DNA of 64,000 nucleotides. It comes from Ruminococcaceae bacterium UBA1375. Lineage in GTDB: Bacteria; Bacillota; Clostridia; Oscillospirales; Ruminococcaceae. The DNA lies in NCBI GenBank assembly GCA_002305795.1, contig DBRF01000006.1, positions 3,409 to 67,408 on the forward strand, in the 5' to 3' direction. The first letter of the stretch is position 1; the number at the start of each line of letters is the position of its first letter. The notes below the pieces were generated by a model, which saw only the letters and a list, made by a program, of their open reading frames with translations, was not told the DNA's origin and did no database searches. The position numbers and the translations under genes were made by a program. Shown here one piece after another: positions 304 to 62,106 of the stretch.

Positions 304-503
304 CTTCCCTTTGATGAGAAGGCGGGATGAAGGATGAGAGTTCTTCCGCTGAATATAGAATTGACAGAAATGTCGTCTTTTGGTAAAATAAAGACACGGC
401 TTTTGCCTACTCCAAATTGGGGGGCAGAAGGATGGAGTTATAAAACGGTAAGCGGTTTCATCCCCTAAATTCGAGGATTTTACTTGAAAGGAGGGGATGT
501 GGT

Positions 504-581
504 GTGACGTGGGAACAATTTTTCATGGTCATCCAGACAGTTTTGTCGGCCCTTCTTGTGTATTATTCACGGAAGAAGTAA
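504..581 (+). CDS. small hydrophobic peptide, putative type I toxin (holin-like toxin type), module A
   Basis: GTG at 504 lies 7 nt after the SD aaaGGAGGGG (487-496). The 25 codons give VTWEQFFMVIQTVLSALLVYYSRKK. The same frame is conserved in copies B (11588) and D (46538) with synonymous third-base changes (acg/aca, tcg/tct, gcc/gct/gcg, ctt/ctg). Promoter: TTGACA 361-366, 17 nt, TAAAAT 384-389. Confidence 0.7.
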   Translation: MTWEQFFMVIQTVLSALLVYYSRKK

Positions 582-587
582 AAAAGA

Positions 588-698
588 CAAAATAAGGCAG
601 CCGCTCAAACGAAGTCCCTGAGCGGCTGCTTTTGCACCTAAAGGGGACGAGCCGTTTTCGATGGGTTGCTTCCGACAATCCCACAGCTCAATCCTTCT
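588..698 (-). ncRNA. putative antitoxin sRNA convergent to toxin A
   Basis: Minus-strand promoter TTGACA (733-728), 17 nt, TATAAT (710-705). The predicted transcript begins near 698 with AGCAGAAGGAT and ends at the shared hairpin 598-630 plus a T-rich tail on the minus strand (cttattttgtctttt). It has no SD-preceded ORF. Confidence 0.5.
597..635. terminator. bidirectional intrinsic terminator shared by toxin A mRNA and the convergent sRNA
   Basis: gcagccgctca / tgagcggctgc stem around an 11-nt loop. It is followed by tttt on the + strand and preceded by an A-rich tract (a T-tract on the - strand). Confidence 0.75.
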
Positions 699-879
699 GC
701 TATTATTATACCCATTTTCCGCCCTGCTGTCAAGGGAAGCGCTGCCCGGCGGAATGGAGTTTTGTAGGGAAAAACCCTAGGAAGCAAAATAATCCGAACA
801 AAATGACCCATTTCCCTTTCCAATGCAACGCTCACCGGAGGGTTTTCCTTCCTTTTTTCTTCACTCAAGGAAAAACCGG

Positions 880-1310: not shown

Positions 1311-2969
1311 ATGAAAAACGCAGACAAGTATCAAAAGGGATTTTTCCTCCCCCCGGAACCCTGCTACGACTGGGTGAAAAAGGACGCCGTGGACAAGGCT
1401 CCCATCTGGTGCAGCGTGGATTTGCGGGACGGCAACCAGGCTTTGGTGGTGCCTATGAGCCTGGAAGAGAAGCTGGACTTCTTCCAGTATCTGGTGCAGC
1501 TTGGCTTTAAGGAAATCGAAGTGGGATTTCCCGCCGCCAGCGAAACGGAATTTGAATTTTTGCGCACCCTGATTGAAAAGGACATGATTCCCGACGACGT
1601 CACCATCCAGGTGCTGACCCAGTCCCGGGAGCACATCATCAAGCGCACCTTTGAAGCCTTAAAGGGCTGCAAGCACGCCATCGTCCACCTGTACAACTCC
1701 ACCAGTGTGGCCCAGCGGGAGCAGGTGTTCAAGAAGGACAAAGAGGCCATCATCGACATCGCCGTTACCGGGGCGGAGCTGTTTAACCAGTATGTGAAGG
1801 GCTACGAGGACCACTACCGCTTTGAGTACTCCCCGGAATCCTTCACCGGCACCGAGCCGGAGTTTGCGCTGGAAATCTGCAACCGGGTCATCGACATCTG
1901 GAAGCCCACCAAGGAACGGCCGGTAATCATCAACCTGCCGGTGACGGTGGAGATGAGCTCTCCCCACGTCTACGCCTGCCAGGTGGAGTACATGAGCAAG
2001 CACCTCCACGACCGGGAAAACGTACTCATCTCCCTCCACCCCCACAACGACCGGGGCTGCGCCGTGGCGGACACCGAACTGGGCCTGCTGGCGGGAGCCG
2101 ACCGGGTGGAAGGCACCCTCTTCGGCAACGGGGAACGCACCGGCAATGTGGACATCGTCACTCTGGCCATGAACCTGTTCAGCCACGGCATCGACCCCAA
2201 GCTGGACTTCTCCAACATGAACGAGACGGTGACCGCCTATGAAAAGGCCACCAAAATGCCGGTAGGAGACCGTCAGCCCTATGCGGGCAAGCTGGTGTTT
2301 GCCGCCTTCTCCGGCTCCCATCAGGACGCCATCGCCAAGGGCATGGATTGGCGCAAGGAAAAGAACCTCCACCAGTGGACGGTGCCCTATCTGCCCATCG
2401 ACCCCAAGGACGTGGGCCGGGAATACGAGAAGGACGTCATCCGAATCAACTCCCAGTCCGGCAAGGGGGGCATCGGCTATCTGCTGGAGCAGAAGTTCGG
2501 CTACCACCTGCCGCCGAAAATGCGGGAGCACTTCGGGTACCGGGTCAAGAGTGTCTCCGACCACGCCCACAAGGAGCTGAGCGCCGACGAGGTGTTCTCC
2601 ATCTTCCGCAAGGCGTACTGTCATGTGGAAGGGGCGGTAACCTTGGCGGATTACCACTTCCGCCGCCATGGGGAGGACATCACCGTGGATTTGACCTTGG
2701 AGGACAAAGGGGTGCGCCGCACTGCCACCGCGTCCGGCAACGGGCGGTTGGATGCGGTGAGCAACGCCGCCAAGGAGATTCTGGGGATGAACTACACCAT
2801 TGTAGCCTACACCGAGCACGCCTTGACCCAGTCCAGCAAGAGCCAGGCCGTGGCTTATGTGGGCATTGAGTACCAGGGGACGGTGTACTGGGGCGTCGGG
2901 GAGCATAGTGATATTATCGCCGCTTCCATTTTTGCCTTGGTCAGCGCCATCAACCAGGTGCGGAAATAA
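1311..2969 (+). CDS. leuA: 2-isopropylmalate synthase (long form)
   Basis: 552 aa from ATG 1311 (SD aggaaaggtgag at 1290-1301; the ORF opens at GTG 1302). Motifs: WCSVDLRDGNQAL, HPHNDRG, and a C-terminal LeuA dimerisation/regulatory region. It is first in the leuACDB cluster behind the T-box. Confidence 0.95.
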   Translation: MKNADKYQKGFFLPPEPCYDWVKKDAVDKAPIWCSVDLRDGNQALVVPMSLEEKLDFFQYLVQLGFKEIEVGFPAASETEFEFLRTLIEKDMIPDDVTIQVLTQSREHIIKRTFEALKGCKHAIVHLYNSTSVAQREQVFKKDKEAIIDIAVTGAELFNQYVKGYEDHYRFEYSPESFTGTEPEFALEICNRVIDIWKPTKERPVIINLPVTVEMSSPHVYACQVEYMSKHLHDRENVLISLHPHNDRGCAVADTELGLLAGADRVEGTLFGNGERTGNVDIVTLAMNLFSHGIDPKLDFSNMNETVTAYEKATKMPVGDRQPYAGKLVFAAFSGSHQDAIAKGMDWRKEKNLHQWTVPYLPIDPKDVGREYEKDVIRINSQSGKGGIGYLLEQKFGYHLPPKMREHFGYRVKSVSDHAHKELSADEVFSIFRKAYCHVEGAVTLADYHFRRHGEDITVDLTLEDKGVRRTATASGNGRLDAVSNAAKEILGMNYTIVAYTEHALTQSSKSQAVAYVGIEYQGTVYWGVGEHSDIIAASIFALVSAINQVRK

Positions 2970-3461
2970 CTTAAAGTTTTTTGGTGAAGCTTTTTTTCAA
3001 AAAAGCTTCTCAGGGTGTGGGGCAGACGCCCCACAAAGACTTCTTTTTTCTTTTCCATCCTGATTCCACCCAGGCAACTTGCCTCTGCTTTCTGGGAGCA
3101 GCTGCCATGATAATGGTGGAAATGCTGACCGGGCCAGTCGGGAACGGGCGGACAAAAAACAAGCCTGCCCCTGCGCAGAGCAGGCGGGCAGGTCGAGGGT
3201 TTGACCATGTTAAACGATTGCCCCCTCCCTCTGCCTACGGCAGTCGTCCGGGGCCGGTTTTAAAAGCCGGGTACCACGACTCGCACGGCTTCGGCCTCCC
3301 CCATTATGATTTACTTTGCACTCGATTCGCTGAGGTAAGCTGCCTGGTGCGAAATAAGATTCAAAAGATATTTTTGCAGGGGCTTTGCCCCTTGCATCCC
3401 CACAAGCCTTTTGAAAAAGGCTTGACCGAAAACTTCCAGTTTTGATACTATCCAACTTCCA
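2970..3461. repeat. mosaic intergenic element (LE family) filling the leuA-leuC spacer
   Basis: It is about 180 nt nearly identical to 4906-5067. Both ends are shared with 4752-5266. The 3'-proximal part (aaataagat...tgcaggggctttgccccttgca.ccccacaagcctttt.aaaaaggcttgacc) is the reverse complement of the start of the element at 18231-18330. The ORFs in it (2981..3445 and others) are not conserved as protein. Confidence 0.8.
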
Positions 3462-4751: not shown

Positions 4752-5266
4752 AACTTAAAAGTTTTTTGGTGAAGCTTTTTTCAAAAAAGCTTCTCAGGGT
4801 GTGGGGTGAAACGACAGGTCTTTGACCTGCCCAAGTCCCACCTTAGCGGCCAAAAAGGCCGGCCGCTATTTTGCTTCGCAAAAGCCGGTGGAACTTGCCC
4901 CACAAAGGTTTCTTTTCCATCCTGATTCCGCTCAGGCAACTTGCCTCTGCTTTTTGGAAACAACTGCAATGATAATGGTGGAAAGGCTGACCGGGCCAGT
5001 AGAGAACGGGCGGACAAAAAACAGGCCTGCCCCTGCGCAGAGCAGGCGGGCAGGTCGAGGGTTTGACCGTTAGAGCCCGGCAAACGGTTGACGGCCCCCG
5101 TTTCACATCGGGCCGCTGGTTTTAAATTCCGCCTTCCTCACCCCGGCTACAGGATTTAACTGCCACGGACCCCTACAAAAGGACTCCGATTTGTTTGCAG
5201 GGCGCTGCCCTGCACCCGCCAGCCTTTGAAAAGGCTGGACCTAAACTTCAAGACCTCCAACTTCCA
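4752..5266. repeat. mosaic intergenic element (LE family) filling the leuC-leuD spacer
   Basis: It is a paralogue of 2970-3461 with a ~100-nt extra block (4807-4905). 5161-5250 (ctgccacggacccctacaaaaggactccg...gctggacctaaactt) also matches 61961-62095. Confidence 0.8.
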
Positions 5267-6863: not shown

Positions 6864-6995
6864 ACCGGCTGAAACAAAAACATCCCCTTGATCTGGGTTG
6901 ACAAAGGGGACGTTTTGGAGTCGCAATCAAGGCCAGGGTGTTCTGTCCCGTACTGACCGAAACGGCTCCGCTCCACAAAAACAAGACAAATAAGA

Positions 6996-7035
6996 AAGCA
7001 ACCGTCTGACGAACACTTGGACGGTTGCTTTTTTG
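6996..7035. terminator. bidirectional intrinsic terminator between leuB (+) and the phosphoesterase gene (-)
   Basis: aagcaaccgtc / gacggttgctt stem, tttt on the + side and a T-rich run on the - side. Confidence 0.8.
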
Positions 7036-7049
7036 CAATGAAAGACGTT

Positions 7050-7736
7050 TTATGATTTTTTTGAAACCTGCACCGGCACCACATCCTTAAACATAGCCCG
7101 GTACCGGGGCGGGATGGCTTTGTCCTTGTGGTAGCGGCCGAAGAACCACATCTTAAAATCCACCAGCTCGCTGATGCGCTGCAAAAACTGATGGAGAAAT
7201 CCCAAGGCGGTGTCGTTCTCGTTGAGGTTCATAAACTGCTTGATTTTCCCCGGGGCGTCGTGGGTGAGGATCACATCCACCTGATCCCCGTTGAGCCCCA
7301 GCCGGTTTAAGGCTTTGTCGGTCTGCTCCAGCACCGGAAGCCGCAGGGCGTGGGCCTTTTCCTGGGTCATCTCCTCTAAATCCTCCACCGGATCGCCTCC
7401 GCCGAAGGCAAAGATAGTGGTGTCCTCGATGGTGAAGATTTCCCCCCGGCAGAGGTGGCGGATGTTGGGAGCGATGGTGTGAACCATGCCGCCGCAGTAT
7501 TCCTCGGTGGGGTACTCCTCCAGCCGGTCGAAGTTTTCGTTTAACCCCTCCACAAAGAGGATGTTGTACTTCAGCTTGCTGAGATATTTTAAGGCGGCCT
7601 TTTCCTGTTTGCTGCCGTCCCAGATAAACCCGAAGTCCCCGCAGACCAGCAGGGTGTCCCCGGGCTTTAACTGCTTCATGTTCTTTTCCTTGAACCGTTC
7701 CAGATCTCCGTGGAGATCCCCGGTGATGTAGATCAT
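7050..7736 (-). CDS. metallophosphoesterase (calcineurin-like phosphoesterase family)
   Basis: 228 aa. It has MIYITGDLHGD, VCGDFGF and LTHDAPG metal-binding motifs. Confidence 0.8.
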   Translation of the reverse strand: MIYITGDLHGDLERFKEKNMKQLKPGDTLLVCGDFGFIWDGSKQEKAALKYLSKLKYNILFVEGLNENFDRLEEYPTEEYCGGMVHTIAPNIRHLCRGEIFTIEDTTIFAFGGGDPVEDLEEMTQEKAHALRLPVLEQTDKALNRLGLNGDQVDVILTHDAPGKIKQFMNLNENDTALGFLHQFLQRISELVDFKMWFFGRYHKDKAIPPRYRAMFKDVVPVQVSKKS

Positions 7737-11074: not shown

Positions 11075-11092
11075 GAAGCAGTGAGAAAGGAA

Positions 11093-11128
11093 AAACAACC
11101 GCTCCTTAGATGGGCGGTTGTTTCAGTT
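11093..11128 (+). terminator. intrinsic terminator after the carboxypeptidase gene
   Basis: acaaccgc / gcggttgt stem followed by a T-rich run. Confidence 0.65.
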
Positions 11129-11587
11129 TGTCGAAAAAATATTTGCAATCTCCTTGGCAGCTTTTACGCAAATCCCTCACGGATTGCCTGTAATCAGCCT
11201 TCAATAGGGGATGGAAAAGGAATGCCGGGACAAAGGCTTCCCCCAGGGGGGAAGCTGCCGCCGCAGGCGGCTGATGAGGGGGAAAGGGGAATTTTTCACC
11301 GGCAAAAACCGTGACGTACCGCAAAAATTGTCTGCTAAATTTCCCTGAGATGAAATGGGTTCACCCATGCCGCACCTCATCCTTGGCCGCACCGGTTTGC
11401 AGAAAAGCCAAACAGAAGTTAGCCCCATTGCCTTATGGGGAAATTGACAGGAATGTCATTTTTTGCTATAATCAGGCTACGGCGAAAGCCCACCTGCTTC
11501 GGCGGGGGAAGGATAAGGCATTTCAAACGGGAGTGGTTGATCCCCTGTACATCCGTCAAGTTATTTTGCTTGAAGGGAGGGGGTGAG

Positions 11588-11677
11588 ATGACATGGGAAG
11601 ATTTTTTCCTGTTCATCCAGACAGTTTTGTCTGCTCTTCTGGCATATTTTGCTTGGAAGAACAATCGGACAAAATGA
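11588..11677 (+). CDS. small hydrophobic peptide, putative type I toxin, module B
   Basis: ATG 11588 follows the SD gaaGGGAGGGGGtgag. The 29 codons give MTWEDFFLFIQTVLSALLAYFAWKNNRTK. Promoter: TTGACA 11444-11449, 17 nt, TATAAT 11467-11472. Confidence 0.7.
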   Translation: MTWEDFFLFIQTVLSALLAYFAWKNNRTK

Positions 11678-11764
11678 AAACAGCCGCTCGATTTGGCGCT
11701 TGAGCGGCTGTTTTCTTAACAGCTAAATCAAAGGGTCAACCGTTTCCGGTCTTATCCTTTTTCT
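11672..11764 (-). ncRNA. putative antitoxin sRNA convergent to toxin B
   Basis: Minus promoter TTGACA (11799-11794), 17 nt, TATAAT (11776-11771). The transcript reads ..AGAAAAAGGATAAGACCGGAAACGGTTGACCCTTTGA.. and ends at hairpin 11681-11710 (cagccgctcg...cgagcggctg in minus sense) plus ttttcatttt. It overlaps the toxin stop codon. Confidence 0.5.
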
Positions 11765-11855
11765 ATTTCCATTATACTGTTTTTTGGCCCCTCTGTCAAC
11801 CCGGGCAGGGATCTTTTCCAAACCCGGCAGAACCCCGCTCGGATAGCTGTACCCA

Positions 11856-18230: not shown

Positions 18231-18453
18231 AGACTGTAGAAAAAGTAAAATTTAGGTCAAGCCTTTTTAAAGGCTTGTGGGGTTGCAAGGGGCAAAGCCC
18301 CTGCAATGGAAATTATTTGTCCTAAAAATTCTTATTTCTGTCTTATTCTTGCAAAAAAGTTGTGGAAGTGACGAACTTGAATCCGCCCGCCCAACGGCGT
18401 AGAGCCGAGGGCGGGTCAATCTGGAAACATCCGAACCCTTTTTCGACAAGCTG
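18231..18453 (+). repeat. LE-family mosaic element (copy LE-1) in the dnaJ 3' region
   Basis: It starts AGACTGTAGAAAAAGTAAAATTTAGGTCAAGCC and ends CTTTTTCGACAAGCTG. It is collinear with 46023-46292 and flanked by two copies of the hairpin ggaacgtcagg(a/t)aactgacgttcc (18205-18228 and 18455-18478). Confidence 0.8.
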
Positions 18454-18630
18454 CGGAACGTCAGGTAACTGACGTTCCTGAGTCCGCCCTTTGCGGCCAA
18501 AAGTCGGGCCGCAATTTCGCCCGAGGGCGAAAACCGGGTGAACTTTTGTTGAAAGAAACGGAAAACCATATTTTTGGTTTGTTGGAAACAATCCACGGGA
18601 ATCGAACCGGTTCGCCGTCGGATACTAAGG

Positions 18631-18662
18631 TCGAGGCCGGTTGGCTTCGGCCTTTTTTGTTT
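18631..18662 (+). terminator. intrinsic terminator, first T-tailed hairpin downstream of dnaJ
   Basis: ggccg-gttggctt-cggcc followed by ttttttg. Confidence 0.6.
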
Positions 18663-18952
18663 GGACAGAAAGCGGCGTGGCGCAAACAGTTTCCCTTTAT
18701 AAAACATTCCGGTATCATTTGACAAAAGAGGACTGCATCGGTATAATAAATTTACGGCGCAAGCCTACTCGGGGAAATTCCCCGGGGGAGGATAGAACCT
18801 TGGATTGATGTTCCAATCCATCTGCAACGGCAGCGGTTGACGCCCCTGATTCTCGATTCGCCTTCCGCCGTTTGGCGAGATGAGAAAAGGGGGTGGATAA
18901 TTTCTTGTGATGTCGAAAGAAATACTTCCCTCTTTGGAAAGGGGGAAGTGGT

Positions 18953-19048
18953 ATGAATTACGTTACTTGGCCGGATTTGTTCACATTTTTATTGTTGGCA
19001 ATCACCGCTTTGGACGTGTTTTACAATATTTGGACAAAAAGAAAGTAA
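18953..19048 (+). CDS. small hydrophobic peptide, putative type I toxin, module C (divergent)
   Basis: ATG 18953 follows the SD gaaaGGGGGAAGtggt. The 31 codons give MNYVTWPDLFTFLLLAITALDVFYNIWTKRK. Promoter: TTGACA 18719-18724, 17 nt, TATAAT 18742-18747. The leader is ~200 nt. Confidence 0.6.
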   Translation: MNYVTWPDLFTFLLLAITALDVFYNIWTKRK

Positions 19049-19125
19049 CCGCTCAAACTAGGCCCTTGAACGGTTACTTCATGTAATCCAATGCAGGGAC
19101 GAACCGTTGTCGGTTCTATCCTTCT
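19033..19125 (-). ncRNA. putative antitoxin sRNA convergent to toxin C
   Basis: Minus promoter TTGACA (19160-19155), 17 nt, TATAAT (19137-19132). The transcript reads AAAAGCAGAAGGATAGAACCGACAACGGTTCGTCCCTGCATTGG.. and ends at hairpin 19045-19077 plus tttctttttg. It overlaps the last toxin codons. Confidence 0.5.
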
Positions 19126-19517
19126 GCTTTTATTATACTCGGATTTTTCTACCTTGTCAAGATTTTAAAAAGCCGATTTGCTTTTAAAAGGGAGGCCGGC
19201 AGCGAAGCCAACCGGAAAAAATCCCTAAGAACTGCCGAAAGAAAAGCCCGTTTTGATGTATTCCGTCAGAACCGTGTTGGATTTCTTGACAAAAAGGAAA
19301 AAATGATGTATGGTTTCGGTAAGGAAAGAATCCGAAGCAGGAAAAGAGAAATCTTGGCTGGAAGCTCTTTCCTTTTTTGAACAGATGTGTTATACTACTT
19401 AAGATAAAGAATTTTCCGGGCGGGACGGCTTTCCGTTTCGCCGTTTTGATAAGACAGGCGCATCTGCGCCGCTGCGCAAACGTCCGTTTCCTTTCAACAG
19501 AAAAGGGGAGATTCCGT

Positions 19518-22397: not shown

Positions 22398-22552
22398 ACG
22401 GATCTTTAGTACATATACGGCTGTCGGGCTGGTTCCGGCGGCTGTTTTTTGTGTGTCGGAACAAGAACAATAGTTTGACATTTTTTGTGTGCTTGTTATA
22501 ATAGAAGTATCATTTGCCCTTTGGAAAAAGGCATCGCAAGGAGGTGTACCCC

Positions 22553-26009: not shown

Positions 26010-26078
26010 TGACTGGTTTCCCCCGCAGGACTGCGGTGCGGCCTTGACAGAACTTCAATAAATGGGTAAAATAAAAAC

Positions 26079-26163
26079 AGAAGGACAAAGCAAAACAGCT
26101 TGTCCCCTGCTATGGTATTAAGTGACCGCTAGCCTGGTACGCAGAGCGGTCACTTCTTTTTTG
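26079..26163 (+). ncRNA. putative antitoxin sRNA convergent to toxin F
   Basis: Promoter TTGACA 26044-26049, 17 nt, TAAAAT 26067-26072. The transcript reads AAAAACAGAAGGACAAAGCAAAACAGCTTGTCCCCTGCTATGG.. and ends at hairpin 26121-26154 (agtgaccgct...agcggtcact) plus tctttttt. Confidence 0.5.
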
Positions 26164-26239
26164 TCATTGACCAGACTAAGCCAACAATGCTCACCAACAG
26201 TAAGCAAAATTGAATCAAATCAGACCAACTGACTTCCAC
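26150..26239 (-). CDS. small hydrophobic peptide, putative type I toxin, module F (divergent)
   Basis: GTG at 26239 follows the SD aGAGGGGAGGGGatacc. The 29 codons give (M)EVSWSDLIQFCLLLVSIVGLVWSMTKKK. The leader carries the family motifs GCATTTGCCTAC and GGGGCAGAAGGAT. The promoter has an extended -10 (cTGcTATCAT, 26373-26368) and a weak -35. Confidence 0.55.
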   Translation of the reverse strand: MEVSWSDLIQFCLLLVSIVGLVWSMTKKK

Positions 26240-26497
26240 GGTATCCCCTCCCCTCTTTCCGTTCGTGTCCTGTGGACCAAGAAAACGGATGTGGGGGCAA
26301 GCCGCCGCTGTTAATTTACTTTATCCTTCTGCCCCGGCAAAAACCGGTAGGCAAATGCTATAGGATAATGATAGCAGAAGATGTTGCTTTTTATTGAGAA
26401 ATAACGTTTGTTACAATAAACTAGCGCAGCAAAAAGCCCACACGGCTTTCGGATTCCGTGTGGGCTTTGCTTTATCTGTTTGTTTTTGGGAGAGGAA

Positions 26498-31689: not shown

Positions 31690-31808
31690 GCGGGGGAAAT
31701 TGCGCCGTTGGTGGGGCAGATTCCGGATAGCTGTTTCTATCACTTTATTTCAAATCTGTTTTTAATTCTGTCTAAATATAGAAATTTACATTATAATTTC
31801 GATACAGA

Positions 31809-31924
31809 GACTTTGCCCCTTAGAATCCACTGCGTGGGATTCGACCCCACCATGCCTTCGAAAAACGATCTTCGATCTTATTTTCTAAAAGGCTTGACCT
31901 AAACTTTACTTTTTCAACACTCTA
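31809..31924 (-). repeat. LE-family fragment (5' half, reverse orientation) with T-arm-like submotif
   Basis: The reverse complement reads ctAGAGTGTTGAAAAAGTAAAGTTTAGGTCAAGCCTTTTAG...CGAAGGCATGGTGGGGTCGAATCCCACGCAGTGGATTCTAAGGGGCAAAG, collinear with 46023-46135. Confidence 0.75.
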
Positions 31925-31925
31925 G

Positions 31926-31951
31926 CGGCCTGCTTCCCGGCAGGCCGTTTT
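31926..31951 (+). terminator. intrinsic terminator-like hairpin abutting the LE fragment
   Basis: cggcctgc / gcaggccg stem followed by tttt. Confidence 0.6.
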
Positions 31952-35680: not shown

Positions 35681-35801
35681 ACAAAAATATCAACCCCCTT
35701 TCCTTGACAAAAAGGGCGGTTTGACCTATAATTTCAAACAGATTGTGCCGCTTTGTTTTTCTACAGGGCGGCACGGGTTTGAAAACATTGGAGGAATCAC
35801 A

Positions 35802-45954: not shown

Positions 45955-46022
45955 ACAAGCTCACTGCTGCTGTTTTGAAATCGCATCTGGAAAGGAAAAA
46001 GGACGCTGGGAGGCGTCCTTTT

Positions 46023-46292
46023 AGACTGTAGAAAAAGTAAAGTTTAGGTCCAGCCTTTTAGGAAATAAAATCGAAGATTTTTTTCCGAAGGCATGGTGGG
46101 GGCGAATCCCACGCAGTGGATTCTAGGGGGCAAAGCCCCTGCAATGGAGATTGTTTTATCCAAAAACTCTTTCTTCTGCCTTATTGTTTGAAAAAAGTTG
46201 TGGAAACAACAAATCGGAATCCGCCCGCCCAACGGCGTAGAGCCGAGGGCGGGTCAATGCGGAAACATCCGAACACTTTTTCGACAAGCTGA
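46023..46292 (+). repeat. LE-family mosaic element (copy LE-2) in the 3' region of the hydro-lyase gene
   Basis: It starts AGACTGTAGAAAAAGTAAAGTTTAGGTCCAGCC and ends CTTTTTCGACAAGCTG. It contains the T-arm-like submotif (46085-46123). It is flanked by two copies of the hairpin aaggacgctgggagg(c/t)gtcctt (45999-46020 and 46293-46314). Confidence 0.8.
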
Positions 46293-46537
46293 AAGGACGC
46301 TGGGAGGTGTCCTTTGAGTTTTGTTTGTTTTGATATTGTTGAATATTTGTTTGAAAAGCCCGGTAAACAGTCCGTGGATTGACATGAAATCTCATTTTTT
46401 GTTATAATACCATCATGGCTTTTGCCTACTGGTATTTACCGGGGCAGAAGGATGAAGCCAATCGATCAATGATCTATAACGGTAGCGGTTTGCCCCTTAC
46501 ATCCGTCAAGTGATTTTGCTTGAAGGGAGGGGGTGGT

Positions 46538-46618
46538 ATGACATGGGAAGAATTTTTCATGTTAGTACAGGCGATTTTGTCTGCGATTCTGGTTTATTAT
46601 GCCCGGAAGAACAAGTAA
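46538..46618 (+). CDS. small hydrophobic peptide, putative type I toxin, module D
   Basis: ATG 46538 follows the SD gaaGGGAGGGGGtggt. The 26 codons give MTWEEFFMLVQAILSAILVYYARKNK. Promoter: TTGACA 46379-46384, 18 nt, TATAAT 46403-46408. Confidence 0.7.
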   Translation: MTWEEFFMLVQAILSAILVYYARKNK

Positions 46619-46710
46619 GACAAAATAGAAGTAACCGCTCAATCGGCACTTAGAGCGGTTACTCGATAACATAGACTCTAGGGGCTAGCCGTTTCCGGCT
46701 TCGTCCTTCT
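46618..46710 (-). ncRNA. putative antitoxin sRNA convergent to toxin D
   Basis: Minus promoter TTGACA (46744-46739), 16 nt, TATAAT (46722-46717). The transcript reads AAAAACAGAAGGACGAAGCCGGAAACGGCTAGCCCCTAGAG.. and ends at hairpin 46631-46662 plus ttctattttg. Confidence 0.5.
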
Positions 46711-46912
46711 GTTTTTATTATACCCATTTTTCCGCATTTGTCAAGGCCGGCTTTTGTCCGGGGAAATCTTAAAATTGCCTTTTTATCCTTGTAAAAGTTC
46801 CCCCAAACCATCTTGCAAAATTTTCCCCTATGCCTTACAATAAGGGTATCATTTGGGGAAGGGGCGCATAGGTAAGCTACCTCTTCCTGCATAACAGGAG
46901 GGAAATCCCGGT

Positions 46913-54672: not shown

Positions 54673-54739
54673 CTTCCTCTTTCCTGCTTTTACTTTCGGT
54701 ATCCTTGACAAAACAGCAGAAAAAGGATATAATAAAAGA

Positions 54740-54823
54740 AAAGGACGAAACCGGAAACGGTTGGCCCTTGGAAACAGTTTTTAAGTAACCGCTTCTGTGG
54801 CTGGGAGCGGTTACTTCTTTTTA
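54740..54823 (+). ncRNA. putative antitoxin sRNA convergent to toxin E
   Basis: Promoter TTGACA 54705-54710, 17 nt, TATAAT 54728-54733. The transcript reads AAAAGAAAAGGACGAAACCGGAAACGGTTGGCCCTTGGAAAC.. and ends at hairpin 54783-54816 (aagtaaccgc...gcggttactt) plus cttttt. Confidence 0.5.
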
Positions 54824-54909
54824 TGAGTTAGAATTTCGTAGAGAAATTTTGCAATGGATACAACTACTGCCAACAGGGCAATCAGATGCTCCCATGTAAA
54901 AGGTCCCAA
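54811..54909 (-). CDS. small hydrophobic peptide, putative type I toxin, module E (divergent)
   Basis: TTG at 54909 follows the SD gaaaGGGGGAAGaaaa. The 32 codons give (M)GPFTWEHLIALLAVVVSIAKFLYEILTHKKK. Minus promoter: TTGACA (55122-55117), 17 nt, TACAAT (55099-55094). Confidence 0.55.
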   Translation of the reverse strand: MGPFTWEHLIALLAVVVSIAKFLYEILTHKKK

Positions 54910-55279
54910 TTTTCTTCCCCCTTTCCAAAAGAGGGAAAACATCCATTCATAATTAGAAGTTGCTCACCTCTTTCCAAAAACTTGCGTTAAAACGCAGCAT
55001 AAATTTGGGTAAATGAGAAGAGCCAACCGCTTACCGTTTTGTTTCGTCCTTCCCCTGAAGAAATATCTTCAAGTAGACTTGCGTCGTGGCTTTATTGTAG
55101 CATGGTTCCTGTTTTCTGTCAATTTGAATTTGAAAGTAAAAAAGGATGCCTTCTCTTTACCTCCCTTTTACCCCGAAAAAACCATGATTTTCCTTGCGTC
55201 TCACCCTCTGCAGTGTTATAATGGTACAGTGAACGATTGTTGATTTTTGCCATACAAACGGGAGAGAGGAGAATCACAG

Positions 55280-59287: not shown

Positions 59288-60040
59288 ATGAAACCCAGCC
59301 GTTCCCCGGAACATTCTGCACCGAAAAAATCCCCGTGGAAAAAAAGCGGCACCGGCCTGATTCTAGGGCTGTCCCTGGGGGTGGGTATACTGCTGCTGGC
59401 CCTGCGGATTGCCCTGTGGGCGGCCTTTTTGATGGGAAGCGCCCTTCCTCTGGCCCAGCCGGAACTCCCCTCCCTCCCGTCCTGGGAGGAAAGCACCCCG
59501 CCTGATGACAACCAGCAGGAGGAACTGGAAGTACAGGCAGGCTGTGCGGTCTCGGGAGGGACCTACCGTTTGACCTGTGAGGAATATGTGGACGCTTTGG
59601 AAGAGGTGCTCTCCCGGTTTTACACCCAGGAAGTCGCTTTCCAGGAGGATGCTAGCCGCTGCTACCGGCTGTACCTGGACGGGGAAGAGACCCAGCTTCT
59701 GCTCCTCTTTTACCAAGGGGATTGGCAGGTGGGGGGAATCGAGCCCTTCCATACGGTGGAGGTGGTTTCCGCAGATGAGATGGCAGTCAATTCTGTGGGT
59801 TGCTATACCTGTGCGTCGGCCCTCTATCTGGTGGACTCCACTATGGACAGCCATCTGACGGCGCTGCAATTCATGGTGGATTGGGTGGAGTCTTGGCAGG
59901 AGTATCCCTTCTACTACAGCGGTTCAGGTGCTTTGCTCAGCCAGCTCACCCAGGACGATATTGTGGTAGAGGCTAATTTTAATTCCCAAGGATGGCCCCA
60001 CTCCTTGCGGTTTATGGACCGCACCGACTCCGGTTATTGA
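59288..60040 (+). CDS. membrane-anchored protein of unknown function (paralogous ectodomain to 60145..61719)
   Basis: 250 aa with SD aAAGGAGGaaactgtgc and one TM (GLILGLSLGVGILLLALRIALWAAFL). The ectodomain motifs TYRLTCEEYV...LLLFYQGDWQVGGIEPFHTV recur in the next gene. Confidence 0.65.
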   Translation: MKPSRSPEHSAPKKSPWKKSGTGLILGLSLGVGILLLALRIALWAAFLMGSALPLAQPELPSLPSWEESTPPDDNQQEELEVQAGCAVSGGTYRLTCEEYVDALEEVLSRFYTQEVAFQEDASRCYRLYLDGEETQLLLLFYQGDWQVGGIEPFHTVEVVSADEMAVNSVGCYTCASALYLVDSTMDSHLTALQFMVDWVESWQEYPFYYSGSGALLSQLTQDDIVVEANFNSQGWPHSLRFMDRTDSGY

Positions 60041-60144: not shown

Positions 60145-61719
60145 ATGGAATCTATGGAAAAAAAGTGTCCGGTTTGCGGCAATGTGTTAAAACCGGAAGA
60201 AAAATTCTGCCCCAACTGCGGCACCCATTATCAGCCCCCTGCGGCCCCGGCGGCGGACCAGCCTACCCAGGTGTTGAGCCAGGAAGAAACTGCTTCGCCG
60301 GTCTATGACCAGCCCACCCAAGTGCTGAGCCAGGAAGAACCGGCCCAGACTTATCAGCCGGTGCAGCCCAATGTGCCCCCGGCTCAGCCGCAACAGCCGG
60401 CTCAGGCTTACCAGCCCGCTCAGGCCAATGTGCCTCCGGCCCAGTCAAACACTCCTCCTTACCAGCCCGTTCAACCGGCTCAGCAGCCTTATCCGGGACA
60501 GGGGGCAGGGTACATTCCCCAGTCCGGCCCGGTAGGGGCTAATCCCGCCCAGCCCGGCTATCCCGGCGGCTACATCCCCACTCCGGTAAACGGCATGAAC
60601 CCCGCCATGAACCAGGGCGCTACCCAGCCTCAGTTTGTTCCCCAGCCCCCGCCGAAGAAAAAGCACACCGGCCTGATTGTGGGACTGTCTGTGGGCGGCG
60701 GCGTGGTGCTGCTGGCCATCATTGCCCTGGTGCTGTGGTTCTTTGTGCTGGGAGGCAGCGGCGCTACCGGCGGCGGTGGAAGTACAGGCGGTCTTCGTCC
60801 CGGCAGCGTGATGAGCAGCAGCGACACCTACACTACCACCTGCGACGAATACATCCAGCAGTATGAATCCGCCCTCTCCTCCTTTACCGGAAGCACCATC
60901 ACCGTGGAGCAGTACGACAGCGAATCCAGCACCTATGCCATGGACTATGTAGTCCTGGAAAACGGAGTGGAAACCGATGTGCGGCTCTGCTTCTACGGAG
61001 ATGACTACCAGGTCATGGGCAGTGAAAGTTTCGACACCGTGATGATCGACTCCTGGGAAATCACCAACGAAATGAGCGATCTGGTGGTGGATTCCTGCGC
61101 CGCCGCTATGCTGCTGGCAGACGACCAGTGCAGCGATGCAAACACCGCCCGGGAGCAGATCCGTCAATGGGACCAAGACAGCGGCGGGGAAGACTGTGTG
61201 GAAACCCTCAACGGCATCACCTACGAATTCAGCTATCTCGACAGCGGGGAGTTCTCCTCTTTGTTTGTAGCGGACAGCGATGGAGAAGCGTATCTTTCCG
61301 GCAGCACCGGCGGTTCCGGCAGTTCCGGTGGTTCCGGCAGCTCCGGTGGTTACGGCTACACTTCTCCTTTGGGGGAATATGTGCCCAGTGAAGTGTACAC
61401 CAGTACCGGGGGAAGCCTTACCTACCGGGAGTACCTGGAACAGTTGGTGGAACAAAACGGAATGGACCTCAGCAGTACCGAAGCCCAGACCGCTATTGAA
61501 CAGGGTATGGACACCAGTTTCTACTTCCATTCCGACGGCACTGTGGATGTGGTGTTGAACGGAGGAGCTTCTCAGGAGGGCAGCTTTGTGATGTCCGGCA
61601 ACTGGGCGGAAGTGACCCTGGATGGTGTCACCGAATCCATGGAATACGACGGCAGCACCGACGTTTTGACCTTGGAAGATAACGGCGTGTACCTGGTGTT
61701 GGAGTACAACGGAATGTAA
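60145..61719 (+). CDS. zinc-ribbon domain protein with Pro/Gln-rich linker, one TM and a large extracellular domain
   Basis: 524 aa from ATG 60145 (SD aAAAGGAGttacca; the ORF opens at 59992). It has CPVCG..x..CPNCG, tandem QPTQVLSQEE and PAQ repeats, a TM (GLIVGLSVGGGVVLLAIIALVLWFFVL) and GGSGSSGG linkers. Confidence 0.75.
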   Translation: MESMEKKCPVCGNVLKPEEKFCPNCGTHYQPPAAPAADQPTQVLSQEETASPVYDQPTQVLSQEEPAQTYQPVQPNVPPAQPQQPAQAYQPAQANVPPAQSNTPPYQPVQPAQQPYPGQGAGYIPQSGPVGANPAQPGYPGGYIPTPVNGMNPAMNQGATQPQFVPQPPPKKKHTGLIVGLSVGGGVVLLAIIALVLWFFVLGGSGATGGGGSTGGLRPGSVMSSSDTYTTTCDEYIQQYESALSSFTGSTITVEQYDSESSTYAMDYVVLENGVETDVRLCFYGDDYQVMGSESFDTVMIDSWEITNEMSDLVVDSCAAAMLLADDQCSDANTAREQIRQWDQDSGGEDCVETLNGITYEFSYLDSGEFSSLFVADSDGEAYLSGSTGGSGSSGGSGSSGGYGYTSPLGEYVPSEVYTSTGGSLTYREYLEQLVEQNGMDLSSTEAQTAIEQGMDTSFYFHSDGTVDVVLNGGASQEGSFVMSGNWAEVTLDGVTESMEYDGSTDVLTLEDNGVYLVLEYNGM

Positions 61720-61824: not shown

Positions 61825-62106
61825 GGAGGTTGTGGAAAAAGGATTCGGTATGTTCGAAACAAGCCTTCGGCATGTTTCCGGATTGACCTGCCCTTGGCTT
61901 TACGCCATTGGGCAGGCGGATTCCGTTATACTATGCCACTTACTATGCTACATGGATGCACTGCCACGGACCCTTATAATAGACTCCGTATTGTTTGCGG
62001 GGCTTTGCCCCAGAATCCACTGTGTGGGATTCGACCCCACCATGCCTTCGGAAAAAAAGATTTTCAATCTTGTTTTCCTAAAAGGCTGGACCTAAACTTT
62101 ACGTTT
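61825..62106 (-). repeat. LE-family mosaic element (copy LE-3) between the rfbD stop codon and its terminator
   Basis: The minus strand reads gagCTGTAAaaacGTAAAGTTTAGGTCCAGCCTTTTAGG...CCGAAGGCATGGTGGGGTCGAATCCCACACAGTGGATTC...GGAATCCGCCTGCCCAATGGCGTAAAGCCAAGGGCAGGTCAATCCGGAAACAT...CTTTTTCCACAACCTC. It is collinear with LE-2. Confidence 0.8.

Follow-up and report, generated by a model that had tools for sequence, protein, structure and literature searches.

The window analysed here, a 64-kb stretch of the genome of Ruminococcaceae bacterium UBA1375 (contig DBRF01000006.1), carries six dispersed copies of a small module, designated A to F, in which a gene for a short hydrophobic peptide faces a convergent gene for a predicted antisense small RNA (sRNA). 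A first-pass annotation of the same DNA had described these copies as type I toxin-antitoxin (TA)-like units built from the same parts, and we found those parts in place in all six modules: a peptide open reading frame (ORF), a hairpin at its stop codon and, in total, 11 near-consensus promoters. The leaders, put earlier at 100–200 nt ahead of a G-rich Shine–Dalgarno sequence (SD), measured 108–199 nt, with SDs of the GGAGGGG or GGGGG type. The six modules can be aligned over their whole length, and an nhmmer search of the window with a module profile returned exactly the six full copies that had been counted (E 1e-71 to 1e-95). A 22-base pattern taken from the sRNA side matched four of the six, with none expected from shuffled sequences. 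The modules are a real and hitherto undescribed family of type I TA-like elements, whose notable traits are the presence of six copies in 64 kb, flux at the level of strains and co-variation of the leader, the 3′ untranslated region (3′UTR) and the sRNA.

Promoters were scored over 60 kb of the window against the consensus TTGACA-N16–18-TATAAT (12 positions). All 12 positions matched in the antisense promoters of A and E and in both promoters of B, C and D, and 11 of 12 in the mRNA promoters of A and E and the antisense promoter of F. The single exception, as already proposed, is the mRNA promoter of F, which has only an extended −10 (TGCTATCAT, 26368–26376) with a −35-like element at 26392–26397; module F therefore reaches ~26397 rather than ending at 26373, whereas the spans earlier assigned to A–E stand. 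Eight of the ten perfect promoters in the scanned DNA fall within modules. The two perfect sigma-A-type promoters outside them lie at 22475–22502 (+) and 35704–35732 (+), the former upstream of a recD2-like gene, where one metagenomic strain (L001) has an additional module.

Module A spans 361–733 (+) from the −35 of the mRNA promoter to the −35 of the sRNA promoter (nhmmer E 7e-87). The scan placed its mRNA promoter at TTGACA 361–366 and TAAAAT 384–389 (+) and its antisense promoter at TTGACA 733–728 and TATAAT 710–705 (−). The leader contains an X box (421–440, +), the 5′ strand of a predicted helix that we call P1, which is complementary to 653–698; it is followed by the SD GGAGGGG (488–499, +) and by a GTG-initiated ORF of 25 aa (504–581, +; MTWEQFFMVIQTVLSALLVYYSRKK by translation, as for the ORFs below). 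The shared hairpin occupies 596–630 and has a U-tract in the antisense direction only, and the predicted sRNA (567–698, −; folding z −3.2) would run from a transcription start site near 698 to the U-tract at the Lys codons.

The other copies repeat this plan. Module B (11444–11799, +; both promoters 12/12; nhmmer E 3e-89) has its X box at 11504–11521 (+), a 29-aa ORF at 11588–11677 (+; MTWEDFFLFIQTVLSALLAYFAWKNNRTK), its hairpin at 11677–11714 and the predicted sRNA at 11663–11764 (−; z −5.5). Module C (18719–19160, +; both promoters 12/12), which is missing in strain L004, has the X box at 18784–18800 (+), a 31-aa ORF at 18953–19048 (+; MNYVTWPDLFTFLLLAITALDVFYNIWTKRK), a hairpin that overlaps the stop codon (19043–19079) and a predicted sRNA at 19034–19125 (−; z −4.3). 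In module D (46379–46744, +; both promoters 12/12; nhmmer E 7e-95), the X box (46441–46460, +) can form 19 consecutive base pairs with 46690–46710; the 26-aa ORF lies at 46538–46618 (+; MTWEEFFMLVQAILSAILVYYARKNK), the hairpin at 46631–46662 and the predicted sRNA at 46604–46710 (−; z −2.7). Two copies are in the opposite orientation. Module E (54705–55122, −) has its sRNA promoter at 54705–54733 (+, 12/12) and its mRNA promoter at 55122–55094 (−, 11/12), with the X box at 55039–55055 (−), a TTG-initiated ORF of 32 aa at 54811–54909 (−; MGPFTWEHLIALLAVVVSIAKFLYEILTHKKK), the hairpin at 54783–54816 and the predicted sRNA at 54740–54825 (+; z −2.8). Module F (26044–26397, −) has its sRNA promoter at 26044–26072 (+, 11/12), the X box at 26316–26335 (−), a GTG-initiated ORF of 29 aa at 26150–26239 (−; MEVSWSDLIQFCLLLVSIVGLVWSMTKKK), the hairpin at 26120–26155 and the predicted sRNA at 26079–26164 (+; z −3.6). 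In modules B to F, as in A, the X box is the 5′ strand of predicted P1.

The six ORFs translate exactly as the first-pass annotation had them. The products (25–32 aa) share an N-terminal T/S-W/Y-x-D/E-L/F motif, one predicted transmembrane or hydrophobic helix and a Lys/Arg tail. They have the general properties of type I toxins: fewer than 60 aa, hydrophobicity, a single helix, a charged C-terminus and evolution as coding sequence. Over pairs of paralogues and orthologues, nonsynonymous divergence (dN) was 0.01–0.38 against a synonymous divergence (dS) of 0.2–2.2, giving dN/dS of 0.04–0.4, about 0.1, and differences at codon positions 3, 1 and 2 numbered 132, 87 and 29. For the ORF of module A against its paralogues, dN/dS was 0.04–0.16, and the synonymous third-base differences noticed earlier among A, B and D hold. 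The small ORFs are under purifying selection as coding sequences.

The peptides are nearly absent from protein databases. A search of 5.8 billion library proteins with the concatenated six found no match, and an exhaustive family-profile search of 1.84 billion representatives retrieved only 18 relatives, none of them named, with the consensus xVTWxDLxQFCxxxVSIxxLVYQMTKKK; about half of these are mis-called, with long false N-terminal extensions. One entry of the protein library, P0006, is a close relative of the module E peptide. The expectation that such ORFs escape standard gene calling was borne out at B and C, where no gene is called in the covering strain contigs (L001–L004), and the family is invisible to standard annotation.

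The hairpin between the two genes abuts or overlaps the stop codon in all six modules, and it carries the T-tract for the opposite-strand RNA, as had been claimed. Within the first 8 nt after the hairpin there are five or six T in the antisense direction versus one to three in the mRNA direction, the antisense run being the complement of the Lys codons of the peptide. Ten of its 12 base pairs show compensatory changes. Because the T run is found in the antisense direction only, the hairpin reads as the sRNA terminator and as a poor terminator of the mRNA; by its sequence, it is a proper terminator for the antisense RNA alone. The mRNA would then read on, and it probably continues across the whole sRNA gene.

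The six predicted sRNAs fold alike into a 5′ hairpin (SL1), a linker of ~15 nt and the terminator, with z scores of −2.7 to −5.5. SL1 is closed by AAGG/CCUU and has a GAAA or ACAA loop. RNAalifold on a MAFFT alignment of the sRNAs recovers only the terminator, since SL1 is misaligned there owing to a conserved AACGG that shifts register between subfamilies. On sequence grounds, each module would thus encode an antisense RNA able to pair with the toxin mRNA, as type I TA systems generally do: its convergent promoter fits the consensus, its terminator covaries and its fold is conserved. The sRNAs are 49–68% identical to one another, and their cross-complementarity does not exceed 14 nt versus 86–132 nt with the cognate mRNA; the six are apparently orthogonal. 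None of the Rfam families, the antitoxin families RatA, par RNAII and SprA1AS among them, matched either strand of a module, whether at the gathering score or with E relaxed to 10, so nothing supports homology to an RNA of the RatA type. Two ordinary gene terminators elsewhere in the window, at 6989–7041 (−) and 11090–11130, have module-like stems (AACCGC…GCGGTT) and give weak matches to the sRNA profile.

A feature overlooked in the first-pass annotation is that each leader, by sequence comparison, reproduces in the same sense and in a copy-specific form the 5′ domain of the sRNA from its own module. The replica comprises, in order, the X box (AGAAGGA+N), a Y box (AACGG..CGGTT) and CCCC. Being same-sense with the sRNA 5′ domain, the leader is complementary to the distal 3′UTR of its own mRNA. 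Mean duplex energies between leader and 3′UTR were −50.7 kcal/mol for cognate versus −37.9 kcal/mol for non-cognate pairs, and a leader–3′UTR helix of 14–38 bp appeared in the minimum free energy fold of all 12 full-length mRNAs that we modelled. We anchored the register on the invariant GGA, as an ungapped search for the best register gave inconsistent ones. At the seven variable positions after GGA, cognate leaders and sRNAs share 4.74 versus 2.24 for non-cognate combinations, a value reached in none of 50,000 permutations. Across the 13-bp X helix, 85% of the cells pair versus 67% in shuffles, and eight pairs show changes on both sides (49 cells versus 14.4 in shuffles, a count that none of 500 shuffles equalled); sliding the register brings the score down from 0.51 to 0.15 or less. 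P1, read as a helix that closes the mRNA 5′ to 3′, is supported by this covariation, and it depends on an mRNA that would extend across the sRNA gene.

The SD itself is predicted to be sequestered by an upstream C-run, and a CCCC-loop-GGGG hairpin occurs in every subfamily. Masking the 3′UTR lowered the predicted SD accessibility from 0.29 to 0.14 in B, from 0.31 to 0.13 in D and from 0.25 to 0.05 in the relative L063.

The copy-specific match between leader and sRNA also bears on an alternative scheme, of the par/SprA1 kind, in which the mRNA ends at the shared hairpin and the C-rich 5′ domain of the sRNA pairs in trans with the SD and start region. Sharing of the hairpin would fit such a short overlap, as would the presence of some T in both directions in A and B and the resemblance of the sRNA CCCC element to the cis anti-SD of the leader; moreover, the Fst/RNAII and SprA1 families interact outside their overlap (PMC8594479). 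However, trans anti-SD action like that of SprA1AS found no support in the predicted duplexes between the sRNA and the translation initiation region: cognate pairs (−17.5 kcal/mol) were no better than non-cognate pairs (−17.0) or shuffles (~−16). The sRNA CCCC is also buried within SL1 in the predicted fold, the scheme leaves the copy-specific identity of leader and sRNA unexplained, and the inverted repeats of the modules yield identical rather than complementary RNAs, unlike the direct repeats of par. We consider this short-overlap scheme unlikely.

Among characterized systems, the architecture matches that of bsrG/SR4 point by point, a likeness already drawn in the first-pass annotation. 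In bsrG mRNA, nucleotides 1–35 pair with 232–262 to form helix P1; binding of SR4 to the 3′ strand of P1 frees the 5′ nucleotides and lengthens the SD helix from 4 to 8 bp, and the duplex is then a substrate that RNase III degrades (PMC3834814). In the SPbeta bsrG locus, which we read directly, the SD lies in the same CCCC-loop-GGGG hairpin and the SR4 terminator abuts the stop codon, its U-tract being supplied by the QKKK codons. The window modules share with bsrG/SR4 the convergent 3′-side antisense sRNA, an antitoxin terminator placed after the stop codon with a Lys-codon U-tract, the SD within a G+C helix and, given the mRNA length assumed here, a 5′–3′ closing helix whose 3′ strand is the antitoxin target and complementary to it; the peptide is likewise a short single helix, preceded by a T-aromatic-acidic motif at the N-terminus and followed by a tail rich in K. 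They differ in being chromosomal, multi-copy and located between housekeeping genes, whereas bsrG/SR4 is prophage-borne, and in belonging to a member of the gut Clostridia rather than to Bacillus. A further difference concerns P1, whose 3′ strand in the window modules is antisense to the extreme 5′ domain of the sRNA, whereas SR4 lacks complementarity to bsrG mRNA over its first 57 nt; for this reason the mRNA of a window module must traverse the whole sRNA gene.

Other type I systems are more distant. The txpA/RatA pairs (Bacillus subtilis skin element; Enterococcus faecalis), a second likeness proposed earlier, resemble the modules in having a convergent sRNA that overlaps the 3′ end, in yielding a complete duplex as the final product, in sequestering the SD and in encoding a toxin of the Hol_Tox type. 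Homology is not indicated by either the RNA or the peptide: TxpA has 59 aa and scores 31.3 bits on the Pfam family Hol_Tox (PF16935), versus at most 17.6 for the window peptides. The analogy with fst/RNAII (par) failed. Both par and SprA1/SprA1AS have convergent genes with a common terminator region and a small hydrophobic toxin, yet their RNAs interact through 5′ segments that lie outside the overlap, which in par are made complementary by direct repeats and in SprA1AS contain an anti-ribosome-binding-site domain; since the window repeats are inverted, leader and sRNA are alike. The predicted fold-back of the mRNA resembles that of hok/sok, where 5′–3′ pairing of the full-length toxin mRNA makes an inert storage form; there, however, the target of Sok is the mok/hok translation initiation region at the 5′ end, activation proceeds by 3′ trimming, and the system is Gram-negative and unrelated in sequence, whereas the window antisense RNA would target the 3′ strand of the closing helix. 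By analogy, then, the modules would work like bsrG/SR4 while belonging neither to it nor to any curated family.

On the precedent of bsrG/SR4 and the reading of the SPbeta locus, we propose the same logic for the window modules and regard it as probable that each is a type I TA-like gene pair of bsrG/SR4 design. A strong promoter would drive an mRNA of ~300–385 nt encoding the single-transmembrane-helix peptide, and an equally strong convergent promoter an antisense sRNA of about 85–130 nt, terminated at the hairpin just past the stop codon with the Lys codons as U-tract. The 3′ end of the mRNA would lie close to the sRNA −10, where a second hairpin precedes a U-rich tract. In the free mRNA, the 3′UTR would pair with the leader X box, Y box and CCCC as the long closing helix P1, and the SD would lie within the CCCC-loop-GGGG hairpin. 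With its full complementarity to the 3′ strand of P1, the sRNA would be a same-sense mimic of the leader and, by analogy with SR4, would displace the leader from P1; the released C-tract would then strengthen SD sequestration, and the long sRNA:mRNA duplex would become a target of RNase III. Loss of the sRNA would permit peptide synthesis and membrane damage. The type I TA interpretation is supported, at the level of the sequence, by coding selection on the ORF, the antisense unit, the predicted SD sequestration, the arrays and orphans described below and the bsrG/SR4-like architecture.

Several results weigh against this proposal. The U-tract of the distal hairpin is interrupted, and a simple terminator scan flagged only one copy. 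Masking the 3′UTR left the predicted SD accessibility unchanged in the other four copies of the window (A, C, E and F), in which a local and separate SD hairpin already dominates, so that the translational half of an SR4-like mechanism finds support in some copies only; this arm may be copy-specific, as judged from the modelling. In principle, the similarity of leader and sRNA could stem from gene conversion between inverted repeats rather than from selection for pairing. The resemblance of the peptides to Hol_Tox, suggested earlier, stood only in part: matches exist, all below the gathering cut-off of 23.3 bits, which the controls BsrG (34.5) and TxpA (31.3) pass. Of the window peptides, only F matched (17.6 bits) and the other five did not. 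Two of 27 family members matched (best E 0.0028), and none of seven relatives scanned against Pfam reached the cut-off (14.5–22.4 bits), Hol_Tox being the top-scoring family for six of them and the sole family for four of those; the seventh (VVTYAELFQ…) had no Pfam match. A comparison of the family profile with BsrG by hhalign was insignificant (probability 1%), and a Hol_Tox alignment built from TxpA as query gathered three proteins, too few for profile–profile comparison. At the nucleotide level, nhmmer --max with the module and sRNA profiles gave no match to the SPbeta bsrG/SR4 locus. Finally, YhzE-2, a candidate of this kind, was non-toxic (Fozo et al, 2010).

A bolder version of the proposal, which we hold tentatively and with less than even confidence, is that the antitoxin is a leader replica acting purely by strand displacement: it would compete for the 3′UTR and flip P1 into an SD-locking fold, in a fast-turnover superfamily, previously undescribed, of gut Clostridia and Erysipelotrichia. 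If so, co-evolution would have to tie the leader, the 3′UTR and the sRNA into a three-way lock, and this would account for the coexistence of six orthogonal copies in 64 kb.

To place the family among other genomes, we scanned with the sRNA-side pattern and obtained 72 loci, several of them false positives, because the DNA pattern also fits ordinary promoter-SD-ATGAACGG gene starts. Once false positives were set aside, there remained genuine modules with the peptide, the hairpin and both promoters. Such modules occur in the Oscillospiraceae metagenome-assembled genome (MAG) CASDQY01, the closest relative (flanking genes 87–92% identical in nucleotides), in Candidatus Egerieicola, the Clostridia MAG bin.88, Christensenella, Vescimonas, Oscillibacter, Massilimicrobiota and other Erysipelotrichaceae, and, as tandem arrays, in a MAG labelled Ruminiclostridium. 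The Massilimicrobiota peptides start with MTSYEMVMIVLGI, reminiscent of BsrG and TxpA. A compact subfamily (L016, L023, L030, L073 (Vescimonas/Oscillibacter), L057 and L065) has 50-nt leaders and tandem copies, with a peptide tail, RNRH(S/P)xK/R, encoded within the terminator stem.

Four metagenomic strains (L001–L004), 97–98% identical to the window, differ in module content. L004 lacks module C together with ~80 nt to its right and has 21 unrelated nt in their place. L001 carries an extra, seventh module (18283–18732; peptide MTWEQFFVVIQTILSALLVYYSRKNK) between an SPOUT methyltransferase gene and recD2, where the window (22398–22537) has none; the leader of this copy is broken by an insertion resembling repetitive extragenic palindromic (REP) sequences, and its SD is lost. 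At the leuB–metallophosphatase site (L001:1550–1682, L002:1641–1775 and L013:1828–2216 versus 6870–7066 in the window), a full module is found in a related species, L001–L003 retain an orphan sRNA plus the final codons of the toxin, and the window has neither, which looks like a decay series. Copies are thus gained, lost or reduced to orphan sRNAs between strains that are 97–98% identical. This gain and loss between strains, like the tandem arrays and the orphan sRNA, is typical of type I TA systems.

Such turnover could also be that of a mobile element resembling a miniature inverted-repeat transposable element (MITE), whose inverted promoter-plus-5′-domain ends would serve transposition as terminal inverted repeats, the RNA features being secondary. 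The module ends are indeed inverted repeats of ~60–85 bp, related species carry modules at different loci, and the genome is rich in other intergenic repeats. We nevertheless judge this explanation very improbable. The two ends resemble each other only in the promoter hexamers and in the transcribed domain, and their promoter spacers differ; the boundaries of the module C indel are asymmetric and lack a target-site duplication, the unrelated nucleotides noted above taking up the place of the module; the ORF is under purifying selection; and no transposase is associated. No module copy was found in the plasmid collection searched, viral contigs gave no genuine match to the 22-base pattern (all seven matches are ordinary gene starts), and blastn of module D against phage records found nothing. 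One complete module with peptide MNVTWSELFQFCTFVVAVIDLILLVNNKKR, which likewise shows the leader/sRNA match, lies on an unverified 'Bacteriophage sp.' scaffold from human faeces (L090; MT838072.1, 5116–5749).

The distribution is equally relevant to a reading in which the peptide is a non-toxic small membrane protein, such as a regulator or an accessory subunit, with a cis-antisense RNA to adjust its synthesis and no part in addiction or killing. Many small single-helix proteins are harmless, as was the candidate tested by Fozo et al (2010), the modules lie in core-genome DNA, flanked by housekeeping operons, and the weak NCBIfam match of peptide F is to ComI, a competence inhibitor. Yet six diverged, orthogonal paralogues in 64 kb better fit selfish or expendable TA-like elements, as do the tandem arrays elsewhere, the differences in presence between near-identical strains and the one decay to an orphan sRNA; in addition, toxin mRNAs typically combine a consensus promoter with a buried SD (PMC3834814). 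A harmless role of this sort appears improbable to us, and we keep to the type I TA-like reading.

Reviews report that homology searches found no type I toxins in most Clostridial species (PMC6563280), and a literature search combining type I TA with the gut taxa concerned returned only unrelated microbiome papers. The present family partly fills this gap for abundant gut commensals, namely Oscillospiraceae, Christensenella, Ruminiclostridium-like MAGs and Massilimicrobiota. Its six divergent and apparently orthogonal copies, with three co-varying RNA segments each, make a natural test set for antisense specificity. The modules could serve as portable RNA switches, and their presence or absence between near-identical strains could provide strain markers.

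The window also contains intergenic families of REP- or MITE-like repeats. Five listed pairs are 84–94% identical: 18280–18453 and 46118–46291, 3047–3206 and 4909–5068, 2968–3022 and 4752–4806 and, in inverted orientation, 31805–31941 with 46005–46141 and 46078–46128 with 62008–62058. Four copies of a 48-nt repeat start at 3409, 5223, 31881 and 62074 and are 63–83% identical to their reference. Modules C and D each have a member of one repeat family immediately upstream, and an element related to these intergenic repeats sits in the leader of the extra module of L001. Repeated segments are also found inside protein-coding ORFs at 59.3–61.7 kb (59331–59401 and 60647–60717; 60239–60340). Just downstream of module A, a T-box leader (924–1180, +; Rfam RF00230, 93.5 bits) precedes a 555-aa ORF (1302–2969) that probably encodes an aminoacyl-tRNA synthetase.

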